A stretch of 64,000 nt of DNA from a virus: the IMG/VR virus record IMGVR_UViG_3300045988_119396; one strand, 5' to 3'. Shown one piece after another: positions 23,724-57,755 of the stretch. A program made the translations under genes and the position numbers. A model generated the notes under the pieces. The model ran no database searches, was not told the origin of the DNA, and was given only the letters and a program-made list of their open reading frames with translations. Position 1 is the first letter of the stretch. Each line of letters starts with the position of its first letter.

Positions 23724-24755
23724 TTAAGCTACAAATGCTGCTGGCGTTCTAAAATTCATGAGCATATTCAATTCGATTTCGTCATCATCAACAAGTTCGT
23801 AATTGTCTTTGATATAGTTTTTTACAGCACTAGCCATGAAGTTACGAATGTAAACATAAATAAAGCTGCTGGCATTTCTGATAGTTTCTTTGCCACGATA
23901 TACATGTTCAGCGATTTGTAATAATGCAGATTCCAACCCTTTAGACAATAATTCGTTAGTTTCAAAACGTGTAGCCTCCTTGCTTGCTGGTGAATATAAC
24001 CATGTATCACTAGATAGTAACTTGCTTTCAACTTGACTCTTTGCTTTGAAGATAGTGTCTACAAACCACTTAGCTTTACTGTAACTACCTTGTGATAGTG
24101 TCTTAATACGTCCAAATGTAGACTTAGTTAGTACTGGAGCTACCTTATCTTCCAATGATTTAATTGCCATATCGTCTAAATCTTGTTCAGTGGGTTGAGA
24201 AACAGGGTTAACACCAGAATTTTGTGCGGGAGTGTCTGTTTCATTTGTTTCTCTTGTAATATTATTTGTATTTCTCTCTAGGTATTTCTCACTTGTAGGA
24301 ACATTTTTCACGCTCGTGCATGAAATATTTTCACTCACGATTGTATCAACGATTTCAGCCAATTCTTTTTGAGTATCATTTACTTCGACTATTTCTTTAT
24401 TAGCTGCCACTGTTGCTTGTGGTTCATGTACATAAATCTTGTAGTGTCGTAGACCATATCTCTTAACAGTAATTAGACCATACTTCACCAATTCTTTACG
24501 TAAGCTAGATACAGTTCTAGCAGTTGTACGAACTTTTTTAGCAGCCTCTTCATTTGTGAAGAAGATAAATGGTGTTCCATCTGGGTCAACAAACTTACTA
24601 TTTCCATTTTGTGCATTATTAATAGAGCAAGACAATCTTCTTGCATAGAATGAATATAGTAATATTGCTAAACCATTTAATTCCTTGTATCTTTCATCTT
24701 CAACTAATACATCTGATACCATTGAGAATGTATCTTTTCTTTTCAATTCCATCAT
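23724..24755 (-). CDS. plasmid-type replication initiator, RepA_N family
   Basis: N-terminal LAILLYSFYARRLSCSINNAQNGNSKFVDPDGTPFIFFTNEEAAKKVRTTARTVSSLRKELVKYGLITVKRYGLRHYKIYV is a close match to the RepA_N pattern (akilYsll.drl..S..n.w.DenG.vYi.ft.eel.e.l..s..tv.k..keLe..gLI...r.g....iYv). Divergent from parA across a repeat-rich AT-rich region. Confidence 0.6.
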   Translation of the reverse strand: MMELKRKDTFSMVSDVLVEDERYKELNGLAILLYSFYARRLSCSINNAQNGNSKFVDPDGTPFIFFTNEEAAKKVRTTARTVSSLRKELVKYGLITVKRYGLRHYKIYVHEPQATVAANKEIVEVNDTQKELAEIVDTIVSENISCTSVKNVPTSEKYLERNTNNITRETNETDTPAQNSGVNPVSQPTEQDLDDMAIKSLEDKVAPVLTKSTFGRIKTLSQGSYSKAKWFVDTIFKAKSQVESKLLSSDTWLYSPASKEATRFETNELLSKGLESALLQIAEHVYRGKETIRNASSFIYVYIRNFMASAVKNYIKDNYELVDDDEIELNMLMNFRTPAAFVA

Positions 24756-25840
24756 AATTATTTACCTCTTTCAATGAATATTTTTATGATGAAAATCAAA
24801 AAACAATGTGCTATAATGTAGATAACGTATTTAAAAAACACGTTTTCAACTAATATTGTTATTTTTGAAGTTCATCATTTTAATGACTTTTAGTAACGAT
24901 ATTTTTATTTAGCTTATCGTTCGCCAAAACGTAAGCTATTCAATTTAATAGATTTATTTAATTTGTTTACAAACCGTAGTTCGCCAAAACTGACGGTTAT
25001 TTTTTTGTCTAAATTTTATATCAATTTATTTTAATGTACACCCACGTAGTTATCTTAGAGGTACTTACGTGGGTTATTTTATTAGCATAATATATCTTAC
25101 CAGGAAAATGAAGATATGTTAAGTTTTTCCTGGTTTTAAATCGTTTTGAGCACTTTACATGAAGTCTGGCTAACTCACTCATGTACTTTCAAAGTTGCTC
25201 ACGTGTGACTATATGAAGCCTGGTAGAGTTATGTGGTGTGAGATATGTAACCGCCCTACCCTACTTCTATATGTTCAATATAGCACAAAAGAAAACGGAA
25301 TAAAAGAAGTTTCTTGTAATATGCTATTTAATCATAATGATGTTATTTATTATTATTAATATAATAGTATTAACATCATATAAATGCTATATAAGTTATA
25401 TATATAAAGATTATTATTAATATAATCATCATTAATGAATATTAACCATATTAATCTTTAATAAGGTATATATCTTAACATCAATATTATTAATAATACT
25501 AAAAAGATATATATGATATAACAATCAATATTGATTAGTTTTGTAAAGTGTAAATACCTATACAATAGCAATAATAAACACTTCAAGATAAATATACATT
25601 GTTATTAATTCTATTAAGTATACTAAAAAGATATATTTATTCTTATTATTCTTTTTAGTATACTTTCATATTTATTATATATAGTATATATAAATATTAC
25701 AACACAGCGTCAATAATTGGCTATATTAAAAAGATATATTTCACCTAAAGATTAATTTTATTAATAAGATAAACAAATGTTGACCTTAATTTATTTTGGT
25801 GGTACTCTTAACACATAAAGAAAAACTGGAAGTGATTTTA
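24756..25840. promoter_or_regulatory. origin/centromere-like intergenic region (hairpins, direct repeats, parS-like iterons)
   Basis: GTTCGCCAAAAC x2 (24906, 24972). Hairpins ACCCACGTA..TTACGTGGGT (25041-25076) and ACCAGGAAAA..TTTTTCCTGGT (25100-25140). Motif AAAAAGATATAT at 25500, 25625 and 25730, with a fourth copy at ~27165 after parB. 14-bp inverted repeat AGTATACTAAAAAG/CTTTTTAGTATACT at 25612-25665. Confidence 0.45.
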
Positions 25841-27933: not shown

Positions 27934-28088
27934 TCTAAATAGTGTTATAATAAAAGACGATACAGAGGCTTTATCCTTTTGCCCATCTGTATCACCAATA
28001 TGATATTTTTCCGATTAACCCTTTTGCCTATAGGGGTGTCTTAAGATACTAGCAACATTCCATATAACTTGTTGCTAAATTGAGTTTT

Positions 28089-28124
28089 AGACCGTTGTAT
28101 CCTTCTGCAACGGTCTTTTTATTT
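28089..28124 (+). terminator. rho-independent terminator ending the par operon
   Basis: AGACCGTTG-tatccttctg-CAACGGTCT followed by TTTTTATTT. Confidence 0.6.
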
Positions 28125-28379
28125 AGGTAGACTTCTGTGATTTTTGTCATTTATATTTACATATTTTTATGATAGAATACTAGAAATAGAAAGCCTTTGA
28201 GTATTGAATACACAATGAATGGGAGTCTTGTGTGCGATATAGGGTTATTTTAGACCATTACATTAACTTGTAGTGGTCTTTTCTTTTGTCTTAATTAAGG
28301 ATGTATTATCATAGTCGTATCATAAACTACCCTATAATAAGCTACATTATAGATTTACATACGGTGTTTTAACGTATGA

Positions 28380-29330
28380 TAAGGTAGTATTTGTCATGTA
28401 GGTCTTAAAAACCATACAAATAAGGTTTATTTAGCATTTGTAGGTATTTTATTTTTAGAATTTCGTTTTGAAAACTCAATGTAAGCGTGATAATAAGGGG
28501 CTAATATGATAACTTCTGGAATGAGTGATTTTAGGGGTAAAAACATAAGGTTTACAACCTTGTAAAGCTAGATGTAGATGTGTCGCTTATTAAGGTTCAT
28601 TTTAGAGCTACGAATATAAAATCTGAATAAAAACTAGGTAATAAGTTAATAAAGATAGGATAAATTTATAGTAAAGTTTGGAGAAAAGAAAATTGGGGTG
28701 AGTGAAAAATTCACTGTTTACATGGGCATATTAAGGTAGGTTTTTTGGAAGAATGAAAGAACAATCGAAACTTTTCATTTTTGCACCAGTAGAATGGCTG
28801 CAAGTATATTGTTACAAGGGTGTGACTCACAGGAACTTTTGTCAATGATTTATAGACAAAACTTGATGTGTCTTAGTGCGTATTTTGAGTGGTTTTTGAG
28901 CATGTTTGGAGAGAGCTAAAAGGGGCAAAATCTGTGAAAATGCAAAATATGTGATAAAAGCAGTGGTGATTTGCAGCTGGGAATTGTGAAGATTTTGTGA
29001 AGATTATAATTGGAGTGATTGTGATAGGTGGAATTAATTTTGTGGAATTATAAGATTATTGTTATGTAGTGAGTTAGATTTAGTGTATGGGTATTATAGG
29101 AGTGTAGGGGAGAGAATGAGTGAATTGGAGCTTATTATGGTCGTTAGAGTAGGATATGGCAGTAGGGGAGGGTGAAATAGCGTAGAATAGGGCATAGCAA
29201 GGGGTATTTTGGGTGATATTAGGGTGGAATGGGGAGTGAAATTGGGGTGTGTGGGGTGAGCTACTGTTTCTGAAAGGTTTTGAAAAATTTAAAAGATTTG
29301 AGACAATGTAGGGGGCTTCCAGATGCAAAA
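28380..29330. other. C-depleted (G/T/A-only) noncoding segment with G-tract runs
   Basis: Almost no C on the plus strand, e.g. 28900-29290. Many G3-4 runs (TAGGGGAGGGTG, TGGGGAGTG, GGGGTGTGTGGGGTGAG). No credible ORF on either strand. Confidence 0.6.
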
Positions 29331-29399
29331 TAATTCTAGTTATTTTTTGAAATCTAAAAAAGTATATATTTTGTACCTTGAAAAAGATTAAAAATGAAA

Positions 29400-30300
29400 G
29401 CGTTTACAGAATTAATTCAAGTATTAATATAAATTAATATAAGAAGACGCGTATATAAGTAAAATTTATGGTATCTATAAGAATAACTTATATTTTGCAC
29501 TATTAATAAAATTTGATACACAAAACTTTTATTATACCACACTCCACACAATAACACAATACTATATTTAAAATAATATGTTTCACGTGAAACACGTCTA
29601 GTTTATAACAATTCTAAACCAATAAAAACTCTAACTTACTAAAATTTACTACTTTAAAATTATTCTAAACTAATACAAATTCTAACATTTAAAACATTCT
29701 AAACTGATAAAGATTATAAACTAATAATAAATACAGGTTAATATCATTTACAACATTATAAGAATTATCAATTTATAACTATTCTAAACTACTACTTTAC
29801 TTACTATTAGTTAGTAATAACTCTATATCTTTGATATAGTACATCTACTTGAGGCGGCTGCTACTAATTTACTTACAATAAGTAAGTAACATATACTTAT
29901 ATAACTAGATGTAACACCCTTAACACGTACATAATACTAAAATGTATATTATAGTAGAAACAACACAATAAGCACTAATAACGATAAGCACACGCTTATA
30001 TATGTATCTACACCTATACGCACGTTACTGTATACACTCAAGCCCTTGATGTATCAACGTTTATCACGCTTACATTATATATAATATACATACATAGTGC
30101 ATACATATACATATACTAGATACATCAAACACTAACTATATTTAACACGTTATAAAGCCTATTGCATCAACGATTATCGCACTTATCTAATAATAATCTA
30201 TAATAAAATACTTATAAGAATAAAATAAGCATAAATAAAAGCTCTTATAATTCTACCAATACAAAACACTAATGTGTCAAGTTTTCATAATGTTTTCATA
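29400..30300. other. G-depleted (A/C/T-only) noncoding segment with iteron-like repeats
   Basis: Plus strand nearly devoid of G. Four copies of ATTCTAAAC (29611, 29662, 29696, 29781). Palindrome CACGTGAAACACGTG (~29584). (CATA)n-like low complexity around 30060-30120. Confidence 0.6.
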
Positions 30301-30371
30301 AAGTAAATGAAAGCGGATAAAGCCTTATGAAATAAGGCTTTATAGCCAGTTGAATAATATCATCTTATAAT

Positions 30372-30731
30372 TTACTTACTGGAAGTCAACCCTTGTAAAA
30401 ACGCTTTAAGTGCTATTATATCAGTGTTTGAAAGGGCTTTACCATTGTATGTAACACCAGTTTTCAAAATGGTATCCAATTCATTATTATTGATAAGATT
30501 TTTATTATCTTTATTATCAGATAGACCGTATAAATAATCTAAACTTACATTATACAAGTTAGCTAATTTTAAAGCGTTTGTGCTGGTTAATATGTTTTTA
30601 CCGTGTTCAATATCTGAATAAGTACCGTGACTTTTTAAGTCAATTTTTTTAGCTATATCTTGCATTGTGTAACCTTTTTCAATTCTTAACTCTTTCAAAC
30701 GGGAAGCAGCCGTAAATCTATTGTACAACAT
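30372..30731 (-). CDS. XRE-family HTH transcriptional repressor (CI-like)
   Basis: ASRLKELRIEKGYTMQDIAKKIDLKSHGTYSDIEHGKNI matches the HTH_XRE pattern. Transcribed divergently from the tandem promoter-operator array. Confidence 0.7.
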   Translation of the reverse strand: MLYNRFTAASRLKELRIEKGYTMQDIAKKIDLKSHGTYSDIEHGKNILTSTNALKLANLYNVSLDYLYGLSDNKDNKNLINNNELDTILKTGVTYNGKALSNTDIIALKAFLQGLTSSK

Positions 30732-30883
30732 ATAAATTATTTTAACCTTTCATTTTTTAATATAATAGTAGAAACTATTTAATTGTTACTTTTTATTATA
30801 CCTTACAAACGTTATTATATCAAGGTTTTAACGGGTTTTTATAGTAGATGTTAGCAAACTTTTCAAAAAACATCAAAAAAGTG

Positions 30884-31348
30884 TTGACAAGCTACTAACA
30901 AGGGTTTATAGTGTTTATTGTCGATAAAGTCGACAACACAAAAACATATTTTTTAATTGTAAGCTTCCAATTTTTAAAAATTTTGAAAAAAGGAATTGAC
31001 AAGAAAAAACATATATGTTTTAATAACGTTGTCAATAAGGTCGACAAGTTGGAAGCCGTGAATTGACGGTATATAATATCAATTCATACTTAATTTAATA
31101 AATGCTTCCAGTAAAGGAAGCTACAAAATAAAGATTTTAAAAATCTTTAAAAAGTAGTTGACAAAATGGAAGTTATAAATTATATTAAGAGCGTCGATTA
31201 AATCGACAACTTATATAATAATTTTAGGAAGCTTCCACTTCCTAACCTTGAAAAATCAAGGGTAAAAAGATTTTTAAAATCTTTTTAAAAAGCTCTTGAC
31301 AAAATTCAAGGAAGCAATTATTATATAAATTGTCGATAAGGTCGACAA
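30884..31348 (+). promoter_or_regulatory. array of four tandem promoter + palindromic operator + hairpin modules (rightward)
   Basis: TTGACA at 30884, 30996, 31158 and 31296. Each is followed after 17 nt by a -10 (TATAGT, TTTAAT, TATATT, TTATAT). Each is then followed by the operator TTGTCGA-N5-TCGACAA at 30918-30936, 31029-31047, 31191-31209 and 31330-31348. GGAAGC/GCTTCC hairpins and A/T palindromes (AAAGATTTTTAAAATCTTT) lie between units. Confidence 0.6.
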
Positions 31349-31349
31349 A

Positions 31350-31800
31350 AAAATAAAGCCTCTGAGTTGGGGCTTCCGATAATACCAACTCAATAAGTCA
31401 AAATTTATTTTGTTTGGAAGTACGCCCCGTACGTGGGGCGGGGGTATAAATAGCGTACAAAACACCACTCTTCAGGTGGGGGTGGTGGGTAAAATAAACT
31501 ACTATCTAACCCCTGGGTAGCCCTGGGCGTTCTTTGGACAACTGAATAAAATTTCAAGGGTAGCTCCTTGAGAGTGGAAGCCGTCTTCACTATAAATAAT
31601 ACGGAAGAGCCACGGCAAGCATAGCCGTGACACTCGGCTCAAAGCGGGTTCAATAGGTGGAGTGCATCCTCCCTCGCTTTACTAGCAATGGTAAAGCGGT
31701 ACTATTGTACGTCAATAAAATGGAGAACCTGGCGGGGCTTGCTTAATAACCCGATACGGTAGGGGTTAGCCAGAACGGGCATGAAAACATTAATTCTACC
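31350..31800 (+). ncRNA. GC-rich, densely structured noncoding RNA candidate (~450 nt)
   Basis: No ORF. Sharply higher GC than the flanking sequence. At least ten local helices, including GAGTTGG/CCAACTC, GCCCC-GTACGT-GGGGC, CACCAC/GTGGTG, CTCAAGG/CCTTGAG, GAGCC..CACGGC/GCCGTG..GGCTC, AAAGCGGG/CCTCGCTTT and CTGGC/GCCAG. Downstream of the four tandem promoters and upstream of the first early gene. Confidence 0.45.
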
Positions 31801-31952
31801 AGACTATATATAAATATAGTTTAATGTTTGACAAAACTTGAGTAATCATACAACCTCTAATTTAACAAAATCAATAAATTGATTTTGTTATTAAGCACTA
31901 TGCAAGTAGTGTTTAATATAAAAATCAATAAAATTTAGAGGAGGTACTTATT

Positions 31953-32195
31953 ATGAGTACTAGATTACAAGAAACAACATACGTAAGAAGTGGTAAAGGT
32001 AAACGCTGGAGTTTGAAAGAAACAGAATACATTGATGATTACAGTATCAAGCTATTTGAAAAGCGTATCATTGGTACGGTAGGTTTCTTCAGAAATTTAG
32101 GTGGTACTGAAATTGTATCACGTACTGAATACATGGTGACGTCAATCAGTCCAGACAGTACCAAGAAAGTTGTAAGAAAATTATTATTGTATTAA
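31953..32195 (+). CDS. hypothetical early protein (first gene of early operon)
   Basis: 80 aa, SD AGAGGAGG 8 nt upstream of the ATG. Confidence 0.5.
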   Translation: MSTRLQETTYVRSGKGKRWSLKETEYIDDYSIKLFEKRIIGTVGFFRNLGGTEIVSRTEYMVTSISPDSTKKVVRKLLLY

Positions 32196-57625: not shown

Positions 57626-57755
57626 GGCTCCCTAATGCTAAAAGTTAGTTAAGTGGTTGTTACTAACGGTTATTAAAGTATGGTTGTTAGACTGGGTTTT
57701 CCAGTCTTTTAGAAGCGGTAGATATAAGCTACTGTTTCTAAAAGGAGGGAAAGTA

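Follow-up and report, generated by a model that had tools for sequence, protein, structure and literature searches.

The interval analysed here lies at positions 28380-30300 of the viral record IMGVR_UViG_3300045988_119396, a DNA of 64,000 nucleotides (nt) which, as a whole, is referred to as the window. It consists of a C-poor, G-rich left arm (28380-29330), an AT-rich hinge and a G-poor right arm (29400-30300). Together these most likely make up the core of a 2.4-kb non-coding control region, which is conserved in the pMP1046B family of Ligilactobacillus salivarius phage-plasmids (about 129 kb). From the sequence features described below, we tentatively read its centre and right core as the phage's own lytic-mode replication origin, which would be helped by transcription or by an R-loop, and we give this reading a probability of roughly one in three (about 0.35). 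The strand asymmetry of the interval is real, statistically extreme and conserved, but it was overstated in the original prediction, which had been made from the letters of this DNA.

An origin-like anatomy in a conserved non-coding block

The interval belongs to a 2.44-kb block without open reading frames (ORFs), located between a partition (par) operon and a CI-like repressor gene, and the par and repressor operons converge on it. The original prediction had described a 4-kb ORF-free region, which actually comprises this block (27934-30371), the helix-turn-helix (HTH) repressor gene (30372-30731) and a second ORF-free stretch (30732-31952). From left to right, the features recognised in the block are the following:

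27941-28122, plus strand: small-RNA-like unit with a conserved extended -10 element (TGTTATAAT), three hairpins and a strong intrinsic terminator (28089-28116)
28252-28279, plus strand: second intrinsic terminator, a paralogue of the terminator at 28089-28116
28340-29070, no strand assigned: sequence-conserved, C-poor left arm, non-coding, GC skew +0.35 to +0.85
28478-28493, plus strand: AATGTAAGCGTGATAA, left copy of an exact 16-nt inverted pair (partner at 30061-30076)
29070-29330, no strand assigned: G-run core, with G up to 48% per 50 nt and C about 0-3%
29327-29346, no strand assigned: 7-6-7 inverted repeat AAAATAA-TTCTAG-TTATTTT, unique in the window and nearly invariant
29331-29520, no strand assigned: AT-rich hinge, candidate DNA-unwinding element (DUE), GC about 16-23%
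29531-29559, minus strand: best promoter candidate, TTGTGT (29559-29554), 17-nt spacer, TGgTATAAT (29539-29531)
29579-29594, no strand assigned: perfect 16-bp palindrome TGTTTCACGTGAAACA, unique in the window and conserved
29605-29790, plus strand: iteron array with a 17-bp unit, ATAAAAATTCTAAACTA, in 7.5 copies (29605-29732), plus ATTCTAAAC at 29781
29800-30300, no strand assigned: A/C-rich, G-poor spacer, fast-evolving, with many indels
30281-30342, minus strand: direct repeat GTTTTCATAAT in two copies (30281-30301) and terminator hairpin of the repressor gene (30319-30342), conserved

The presence of iterons, a palindrome, a promoter, an AT-rich stretch and a G-rich block, all insulated by terminators, gives this locus an anatomy closest to that of a replication origin. 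Specifically, the right core holds the only sizeable non-coding tandem array of the 64 kb, in which the ATTCTAAAC core occurs in direct orientation only and mostly on a 17/34/51/68-bp lattice in all 11 lineages compared (see below), and its copy number varies among lineages by whole 17-bp units. Iteron origins are recognised by at least three tandem direct repeats of about 17-22 bp with a conserved core and by an adjacent A+T-rich region, and both are found here. The GC content is 16-23% across 29331-29800, among the lowest values in the 26-33 kb profiled; the AT-rich hinge, put at about 70 bp in the original prediction, does fall to 16% GC at 29340-29400, but low GC runs on to about 29800. 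The hinge also includes AAATGAAAGCG (29392-29402), which is repeated at 30305-30315.

The best promoter candidate points leftwards into the hinge, and its extended -10 element is invariant in 11 of 11 lineages, the -35 element in 10. It was missed by the promoter scan, as its -35 fits at only 3 of 6 positions, and was read from the sequence and the alignment. The palindrome TGTTTCACGTGAAACA lies about 45-60 bp upstream of it. On the other side of the hinge, the 7-6-7 inverted repeat, followed by T-rich sequence, might serve either as a protein-binding site or as a weak all-A/U terminator. G-runs accumulate in the last 250 bp of the G-rich block 28340-29330, with eleven runs of three or more G (G3+) in 29089-29315; the sequence of this G-run core is poorly conserved and rich in indels, and its G-richness is kept. 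It is closed by GGGGTGTGTGGGG (29244-29256), found in 9 of 10 readable lineages, and by the near-invariant TAGGGGGC.

A search of plasmid records with a 2.5-kb query led to one match, pMP1046B (80% identity over 96% of the length), a circular 129-kb replicon of L. salivarius JCM1046, and the remaining window is collinear with it. At the nucleotide level, the tail/structural and replication genes of the two are 90-94% identical, repA 80% and parA 66%, and almost no similarity is left in the small genes downstream of parA. In 2014 pMP1046B, the only isolate of its family to have been sequenced, was described as a candidate chromid, and its replication region was placed at repA/parA, on a genome-wide GC-skew switch (PMC4165912). 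Its gene content (tape-measure protein, holin, tail proteins, antirepressors, DnaB-like helicase, sliding clamp, RepA_N, ParA) and its IMG/VR relatives of 126-129 kb identify it as a phage-plasmid. The phage-plasmid context guessed in the original prediction is therefore borne out by the relationship with pMP1046B and by the phage and plasmid gene content.

Contigs fetched through repressor homologues, together with IMG/VR matches, provided eleven lineages of the block. In all of them the ORF-free gap measures 2.25-2.47 kb, the apparent shortness of L019 being a scaffold gap (Ns), and pairwise nucleotide identity over the block is 78-94%. The skew profile is the same in all complete lineages, rising to +0.6/+0.85 and falling to -0.5/-0.8 (the positive peak of L019 is hidden by the N gap). 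In the same lineages, the repressor next to the block drops to 61-62% amino acid (aa) identity and parA to 66% nucleotide identity, and the par operon occurs in two gene layouts, the small genes of which are almost without nucleotide similarity. Invariant columns make up 70-94% of about 28320-29070 (five lineages), 16-62% of the G-run core at 29070-29230, where indels occur, 60-82% of the centre (29225-29610) and only 22-54% of 29610-30030, which is followed by a conserved island at 30032-30082. With length, sequence and skew kept in eleven lineages, the block does not behave as the fast-evolving junk spacer without conserved skew that the original prediction had named as its own counter-case.

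Among the fetched contigs, the block is interrupted only by the Ns of L019 and in L023, whose contig ends inside the left arm. The Ns of L019, an ENA scaffold, correspond to about 28790-29325 of the window, beginning in the conserved left arm and spanning the entire G-rich core, which suggests that the G-rich stretch is hard to sequence or assemble. An apparent natural deletion of the G-core in L019 was discarded as an artefact of this run of Ns.

The conservation of the block differs from what is found at the plasmid genes, where the repeat arrays upstream of parA are different in each of the three lineages examined:

window, 25250-25800: ATACTAAAAAGATATAT in three copies
pMP1046B (L006 700-1040): 8-bp GTACACAT-type repeats
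L008, 14040-14380: 8-bp TTTCAA-type repeats

Judging from their sequence, these arrays resemble pAD1-style iterons or centromeres and are probable incompatibility determinants. In addition, in four of six lineages RepA is only 66-68% identical to that of the window; its variable columns fall mostly in the first 165 residues (the N-terminal DNA-binding half), residues about 165-343 being almost invariant in seven lineages. This suggests that the origin specificity of RepA has been exchanged or diversified on a fixed C-terminal domain. Arrays that vary by lineage, together with a variable RepA N-terminus, are what RepA_N, pAD1-like plasmids would be expected to show at their origin, centromere and incompatibility determinants. 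The 17-bp array and the skewed block are instead the same whatever Rep, Par or repressor type flanks them. This uniformity implies that the block travels with the conserved phage backbone, where the genes of two helicases (one DnaB-like, one Dda-like) and of a sliding clamp are found, and it suggests that the block functions through phage or host factors that are themselves conserved. Since the plasmid origin and centromere can be assigned to the lineage-specific arrays upstream of parA, the universal iteron/AT-rich core is read as the lytic origin of the phage.

The same comparisons bear on a cis-acting site of the plasmid mode, in which the 17-bp array would be a partition centromere or a set of incA-like copy-control iterons, placed like F sopC or P1 parS. 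The array does consist of direct repeats downstream of a ParA operon, and in pAD1-type RepA_N plasmids repBC is flanked by iterons on either side. A par centromere, however, would co-vary with its binding protein, and the 17-bp motif is identical across both par-operon types and constant where ParA, the putative centromere-binding proteins and the RepA N-terminal domains differ. Moreover, the array begins 1.7 kb past the last par gene, and the lineage-specific arrays upstream of parA fit a centromere or incompatibility role, so that we consider a plasmid-mode site very improbable. In pAD1-type regions, repA, iterons, repB/repC and iterons are followed by the convergent par RNA I/RNA II. The family of the window shares their gene order, with a RepA_N initiator, divergent ParA-type genes with 8-bp arrays in between (pMP1046B, L008) and, immediately past the par operon, small RNA-like units that end in a terminator; what has no counterpart in pAD1-type plasmids is the 2-kb skewed block with its 17-bp array, which do not co-vary with Rep/Par.

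Strand composition of the two arms

Direct counts gave A314 C70 G257 T310 for the left arm (C 7.4%, against 15.6% window-wide) and A382 C148 G70 T301 for the right arm (G 7.8%, against 17.6% window-wide). This composition is far from ordinary, with binomial p values for the skew of 9e-22 (left arm) and 6e-10 (right arm), and a misreading of the letters, which the original prediction had allowed for, is thus set aside. The claim that the DNA is almost devoid of C and then of G holds for the cores and not for the full arms, since near-exclusion of one base is confined to 28880-29260 and 29500-29800. In the C-poor core (28880-29330) 22 C were counted in 451 nt, with several 50-nt bins at zero C, and in the G-poor core (29500-29800) 11 G in 301 nt. 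Measured over 300 nt at a time, the GC skew peaks at +0.85 (28950-29250) and -0.63 (29500-29800), the most extreme values of the 64-kb window (mean 0.07, standard deviation 0.23); at 29800-30300 it is moderate (-0.25 to -0.45).

The arms are mirror images in composition, as had been proposed, but not in sequence: the left one is G-enriched and conserved, and the right one is A-rich, repeat-built and fast-evolving. G makes up 27% of the left arm and locally 40-48%, with an AT skew of about 0 and no T excess. This arm contains 19 G3+ tracts and no C3+ tract, and the right arm two C3+ tracts, so that G-runs on its minus strand are almost none. The many G3-4 tracts reported by the original prediction are therefore present; as to the G-quadruplex (G4) potential assigned to them, the canonical motif (G3+N1-7 x4) is missing from the left arm and a relaxed one (loops up to 12) occurs once, at 29190-29224. 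The composition of the G-poor core is largely due to the 17-bp repeat and its A-rich spacers. The skew thus arises from the juxtaposition of two non-equivalent elements.

The statement that the arms are not reverse complements of each other proved correct. The best local alignment between them is the 16-mer AATGTAAGCGTGATAA only (score 32, against 27.5 +/- 2.4 in shuffles), the inter-arm duplex energy is that of shuffled sequences (-276, against -272 +/- 10), and beyond composition the arms share nothing except this 16-mer. The two copies, one per arm, are the only exact ones in the window and both lie in conserved islands, the right copy in that at 30032-30082 within the spacer. A giant hairpin, an inverted duplication or a telomere was ruled out on these grounds and by the circularity of pMP1046B. 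An invertible segment bounded by the 16-nt pair is unsupported, all 11 lineages being collinear, and an internal duplication of the left arm was likewise rejected (score 41, against 39 +/- 6 in shuffles).

Substitution columns are strand-asymmetric and mirrored between the arms: A/G 101 vs C/T 45 and G/T 34 vs A/C 8 in the left arm, C/T 70 vs A/G 35 and A/C 41 vs G/T 5 in the right arm. Such spectra would be expected if the skew were mainly a mutational by-product of a strand that is repeatedly single-stranded, through R-loops, heavy convergent transcription or strand displacement, and whose cytosines are deaminated. The right arm keeps its G-poverty while its sequence turns over, and its minus strand, with G>C and T>A, has the classic deamination signature. 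Deamination, however, removes C and cannot lift the G of the left arm to 27-48%; this arm has no excess of T and is under purifying selection, and a skew of 0.85 is, to our knowledge, far above known transcription- or replication-linked skews. A mutational explanation of the skew, under which the composition as such would serve no purpose, is unlikely.

The switch from a G-rich to a C-rich plus strand has a terminus-like sign, and this could be taken to indicate a point of dimer resolution or termination, with the 7-6-7 repeat as a recombinase core and converging polar G-rich motifs steering a translocase or stopping an exonuclease. KOPS/SRS sequences orient FtsK-type translocases and Chi halts RecBCD/AddAB-type exonucleases, and these would be the analogues. 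AAAATAA-N6-TTATTTT shares an inner ATAA-N6-TTAT with dif sites, GGGGAGGG or GGGAAGGG at 29165 matches GGGNAGGG, and both 16-mer copies face the centre. The outer arms of the repeat, however, agree with the dif of Firmicutes in no more than 5 of 11 positions when compared by hand, G-runs are almost missing from the right arm on its minus strand (two C3+ tracts), matches to G-rich motifs are expected by chance in a G-rich block, and there is no adjacent recombinase gene, the nearest being about 12 kb off. The case for dimer resolution is thus a weak one, built on motif resemblances, and we hold it to be extremely unlikely.

Coding capacity, RNA structure and flanking terminators

No plausible ORF was found in 27934-30371. 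Stop codons occur in all frames and the variable columns are spread over the three codon phases as 61/64/61, with no 3-nt periodicity, which rules out protein-coding, including hidden or recoded frames, and agrees with the earlier view that neither half encodes a plausible protein. The 82-aa ORF at 29080-29328, which is encoded on the minus strand, falls where conservation is lowest and indels are frequent.

A known RNA family was also ruled out: Rfam gave no match at the gathering threshold, and a run at E<5 over 24.7-32.1 kb returned only chance matches (E about 2-4). The block resembles the large structured GOLLD and ROOL non-coding RNAs in being a long conserved ORF-free segment of a Lactobacillales mobile element, and differs from them in that the arms have no Rfam match even at E<5 and neither a thermodynamic nor a covariation signal. 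Specifically, minimum free energy (MFE) z-scores of the arms in sliding windows are about 0, and RNAalifold column shuffles and pair counts on three sub-regions did not find conserved RNA structure in the arms on either strand. By alifold z-scores, the signal is weak for the left arm; for the right arm it is stronger, but unconfirmed. Pairs that co-vary on both sides are sporadic at best and occur alongside broken ones. The G-poor strand of each arm has a predicted MFE of only about 0 to -8 kcal/mol per 150 nt. In conclusion, the block belongs neither to a known RNA family nor among telomeres and palindromes, and it is not a canonical G4 region or a coding region either.

The main rival to the origin reading, which we regard as a real possibility though not a likely one, is that the block produces one or more long unstructured non-coding RNAs acting through their primary sequence and composition. 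Of the readings considered, it accounts best for the conserved primary sequence of the left arm. There could be two convergent C-depleted transcripts (left arm rightwards, right arm leftwards), a possibility that the original prediction had also listed, or a single G-depleted RNA of about 1.2 kb, running leftwards from the minus-strand promoter across the hinge and the left arm. Such RNAs could serve as a sponge or antisense for G-rich Shine-Dalgarno (SD) regions or C-rich small RNAs (sRNAs), or in Rho loading, and the iterons would be a regulatory array for the minus-strand promoter. A left arm conserved like core coding genes, yet non-coding and unstructured, fits an RNA that pairs with other nucleic acids or binds protein; the G-poor strands are nearly unfolded by predicted MFE, the extended -10 of the minus-strand promoter is invariant, and insulating terminators flank the block. 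The orientation of the skew agrees with the sense-strand G>C bias of the genes of this genome, and the 16-mer lies in both arms in a convergent sense orientation. In addition, the variants of a hairpin at 28362-28385 stay paired, through G-U wobbles, only on the minus strand (hand check of a single case); in this reading pMP1046B, L012 and L024 fit, and L008 has one mismatch.

On the other hand, no significant complementarity was detected elsewhere in the window, where the search for antisense targets found none (best E = 0.12), a convincing terminator was found for neither version, and none of the known RNA families matched. With A>T on the plus strand, the right arm has an AT skew that runs counter to the one of minus-strand genes in this genome. 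This arm is also fast-evolving, and its changes come in whole 17-bp units, as is usual for a DNA repeat. As a separate observation, a near-identical 19-mer occurs in direct orientation at 29259-29277 (AGCTACTGTTTCTGAAAGG), just past the G-core, and at 57727-57745 (...TCTAAAAGG), downstream of pnuC; with E = 0.12, the match may be due to chance.

Terminators flank the block on the par and repressor sides, and this implies that it is shielded from read-through of both operons. On the repressor side, the terminator hairpin is kept by compensatory changes (GCC/GGC to CCC/GGG in L008). On the par side, the small-RNA-like unit at 27941-28122 reaches z-scores of -3 to -16 when its plus strand is folded (MFE, alifold), and it has a terminator identified by the scan and a compensatory change (TAGCAAC/GTTGCTA to TAGTAAC/GTTACTA in L014 and L005). 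It contains a 21-aa hydrophobic ORF (27979-28044) without a Shine-Dalgarno sequence, and it stands directly after the par operon, where pAD1-type plasmids have the par RNA I/RNA II toxin-antitoxin. Between its terminator and the second one lies an insert of about 120 bp (28130-28250) that includes a separate extended -10 promoter (TTTATA-17-TAGAAT). The window, L012/L013 and probably L017 have this insert, and pMP1046B-type lineages lack it. Reading from this promoter into the second terminator (28130-28285) would yield an RNA of about 100 nt.

The block might alternatively act as a transcriptional insulator between the convergent operons, where Rho would end read-through at the rut-like distal arm, before it became antisense to the opposite operon. 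The strands with C>G (C/G of 3.7 for the left arm on its minus strand, 2.1 for the right arm on its plus strand) are almost without predicted structure, and both flanking operons do converge on the block. As in rut sites, one strand per arm is C>G, G-poor and unstructured, but the arms are kilobase-long, as opposed to tens of nucleotides, and their placement relative to the operons is unfavourable, each rut-like stretch being in the far arm and not in the near one. Efficient intrinsic terminators already close both operons, and an insulator would leave the iterons, palindromes, internal promoter and left-arm conservation unexplained. We therefore regard an insulator as improbable.

A further claim, of doubtful standing, is that the exclusion of one nucleotide over a kilobase scale is itself selected, leaving one strand per arm unfoldable, either as RNA or as displaced DNA. 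In a first version, a hybrid of a G-rich, C-free transcript with DNA would form by the iteron/DUE core of a herpesvirus-oriLyt-like or mitochondrial-like origin; in a second, a G-depleted unstructured RNA of about 1.2 kb would titrate Rho, ribosomal anti-SD/SD partners or C-rich sRNAs. We know of no description of either design in bacterial viruses, and selection on nucleotide exclusion is not supported beyond the conservation of composition. The proposal that the region was engineered to avoid a sequence-specific host activity found no support.

The candidate lytic origin and its neighbourhood

Returning to the lytic origin, its function, the identity of its initiator, the direction of transcription and the R-loop are all what we infer from these features, and initiation may be pictured as follows. 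The iterons would be bound by an initiator from the conserved phage backbone and the AT-rich hinge would melt. Transcription over the hinge, whether started at the minus-strand promoter, running rightwards through the G-rich block or both, would aid opening or priming. The rightward transcript would be a G-rich RNA on a C-rich template, favouring a persistent RNA-DNA hybrid, and the depletion of one base would keep the displaced strand or the transcript free of G-C hairpins.

Both components of this picture have counterparts. The layout of RK2 oriV, with 17-bp iterons followed by an A+T-rich region and then a G+C-rich region, is a close parallel. In iteron theta origins (RK2 oriV, lambda ori), as in the block, 17-bp tandem direct repeats adjoin an AT-rich stretch with a G-rich block beyond, and repeat number varies while the motif is conserved. 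The block differs in having neither an adjacent rep gene nor DnaA boxes, and in a G-rich part of about 1 kb, with G and without C, which is sequence-conserved.

As regards transcription, positive GC skew has been linked to R-loop formation, and origins made of a promoter and a DUE (T4 oriF/oriG) or of a promoter and G-clusters (mitochondrial OH, ColE1) have been described (PMC4412123). The block shares with R-loop origins (T4 oriF/oriG, ColE1 RNA II, mitochondrial LSP-CSBII) a conserved candidate promoter into an AT-rich stretch and adjoining one-strand G-clusters. It departs from them in that the direction giving G-rich RNA has no convincing promoter, in that its convincing promoter gives an A/U-rich and then C-rich RNA, and in that iterons are also present. 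The non-template G-clusters near the start that mark R-loop origins are found only for rightward transcription.

Several observations weigh against the block being an origin. With regard to the initiator, no ORF lies within 570 bp of the array, and thus no initiator gene adjoins or co-varies with it; RepA_N is 4.8 kb away, and its N-terminal half varies where the iterons do not. DnaA boxes (TTATCCACA, up to one mismatch), which many but not all iteron origins have, are missing from 27934-30371. With regard to transcription, the best promoter fires leftwards, and its left-arm transcript would be C-rich and disfavour an R-loop; the candidate rightward promoter has a -10 element at 28334 and no -35, and this -10 reads CATAAT in 4 of 11 lineages. 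The G-clusters precede AT-rich sequence and not a G-rich extension zone, and the left arm, as said, is without a canonical G4.

In addition, 750 bp of G-rich sequence conserved at 90% are more than a simple origin accounts for. A switch of this sign, where the plus strand is G-rich first and C-rich afterwards, corresponds to a terminus or to convergent transcription. Being unlike the mutational skew around a bidirectional origin, it cannot be read as a replication-skew footprint. The role of replication origin, among those listed in the original prediction, gains from features which that prediction had not noted: the iteron lattice, the AT-rich stretch, the unique palindromes and the conserved promoter.

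Comparative evidence from outside the family adds to these objections. Searches for relatives beyond it yielded nothing informative (phage DNA; IMG/VR ParA and clamp; clamp homologues at 50% identity; a 21-mer and a RepA profile in GTDB genomes), and by DNA, protein or pattern none came to light outside the L. salivarius phage-plasmid family. Moreover, the skewed block goes unmentioned in the only paper on pMP1046B (PMC4165912). No relative of the family was found by DNA in the INPHARED phage collection, and none of the distant loci fetched, including a chromosomal/megaplasmid-type locus with HTH paralogues, has such a skew. All together, the locus appears most like an iteron/DUE origin with transcriptional assistance, its membership of this class being not assignable without an adjacent initiator and DnaA boxes.

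The gene context of the block in the window is as follows:

23724-24755, minus strand: repA (RepA_N)
between repA and parA: AT-rich intergenic region of 1 kb
to 27933, plus strand: parA and three small genes
27934-30371: the 2.44-kb ORF-free block described above
30372-30731, minus strand: HTH_3, CI-like repressor gene
30732-31952: second ORF-free stretch of 1.2 kb, with a promoter/operator cluster, followed by early genes (plus strand)

Just upstream of repA, at 24900-24990, two neighbouring hairpins have different stems and identical loops (GTTCGCCAAAAC), and a third hairpin is found at 25040-25075, in the repA-parA intergenic region. Beyond the repressor gene, a dense switch region (30795-31350) comprises rightward TTGACA promoters at 30884, 31158 and 31296, three leftward promoters, and operators in the form of repeated TTGTCGATAAAGTCGACAA-type sequences and AAAGATTTTAAAAATCTTT palindromes; the next ORF starts at 31953.

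Downstream of the three tandem TTGACA promoters, the plus strand has a GC-rich island at 31420-31790 (45-50% GC, against 33%). Its consensus fold is accompanied by 13 compensatory pairs in 4 sequences, for instance CACGGC/GCCGTG to GTATGC/GCATAC. It has no Rfam match and occurs only in the window, pMP1046B, L016, L019 and part of L024. By its sequence it is a candidate new structured phage non-coding RNA of about 400 nt.

The phage-plasmids of Gram-positive gut bacteria are barely characterised. The block described here is a concrete, conserved candidate for the site where lytic replication of such an element starts, separate from its plasmid replicon, and a culturable host is available in JCM1046. 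If it is merely an origin with auxiliary sequences, it would be a useful annotation and no surprise; if its composition is selected, it would represent a rare natural case of nucleotide exclusion controlling nucleic-acid structure or R-loops in a bacterial virus. In either case, the opposition between lineage-specific plasmid repeats and a universal skewed block provides a clean basis for testing a two-origin organisation in these phage-plasmids.

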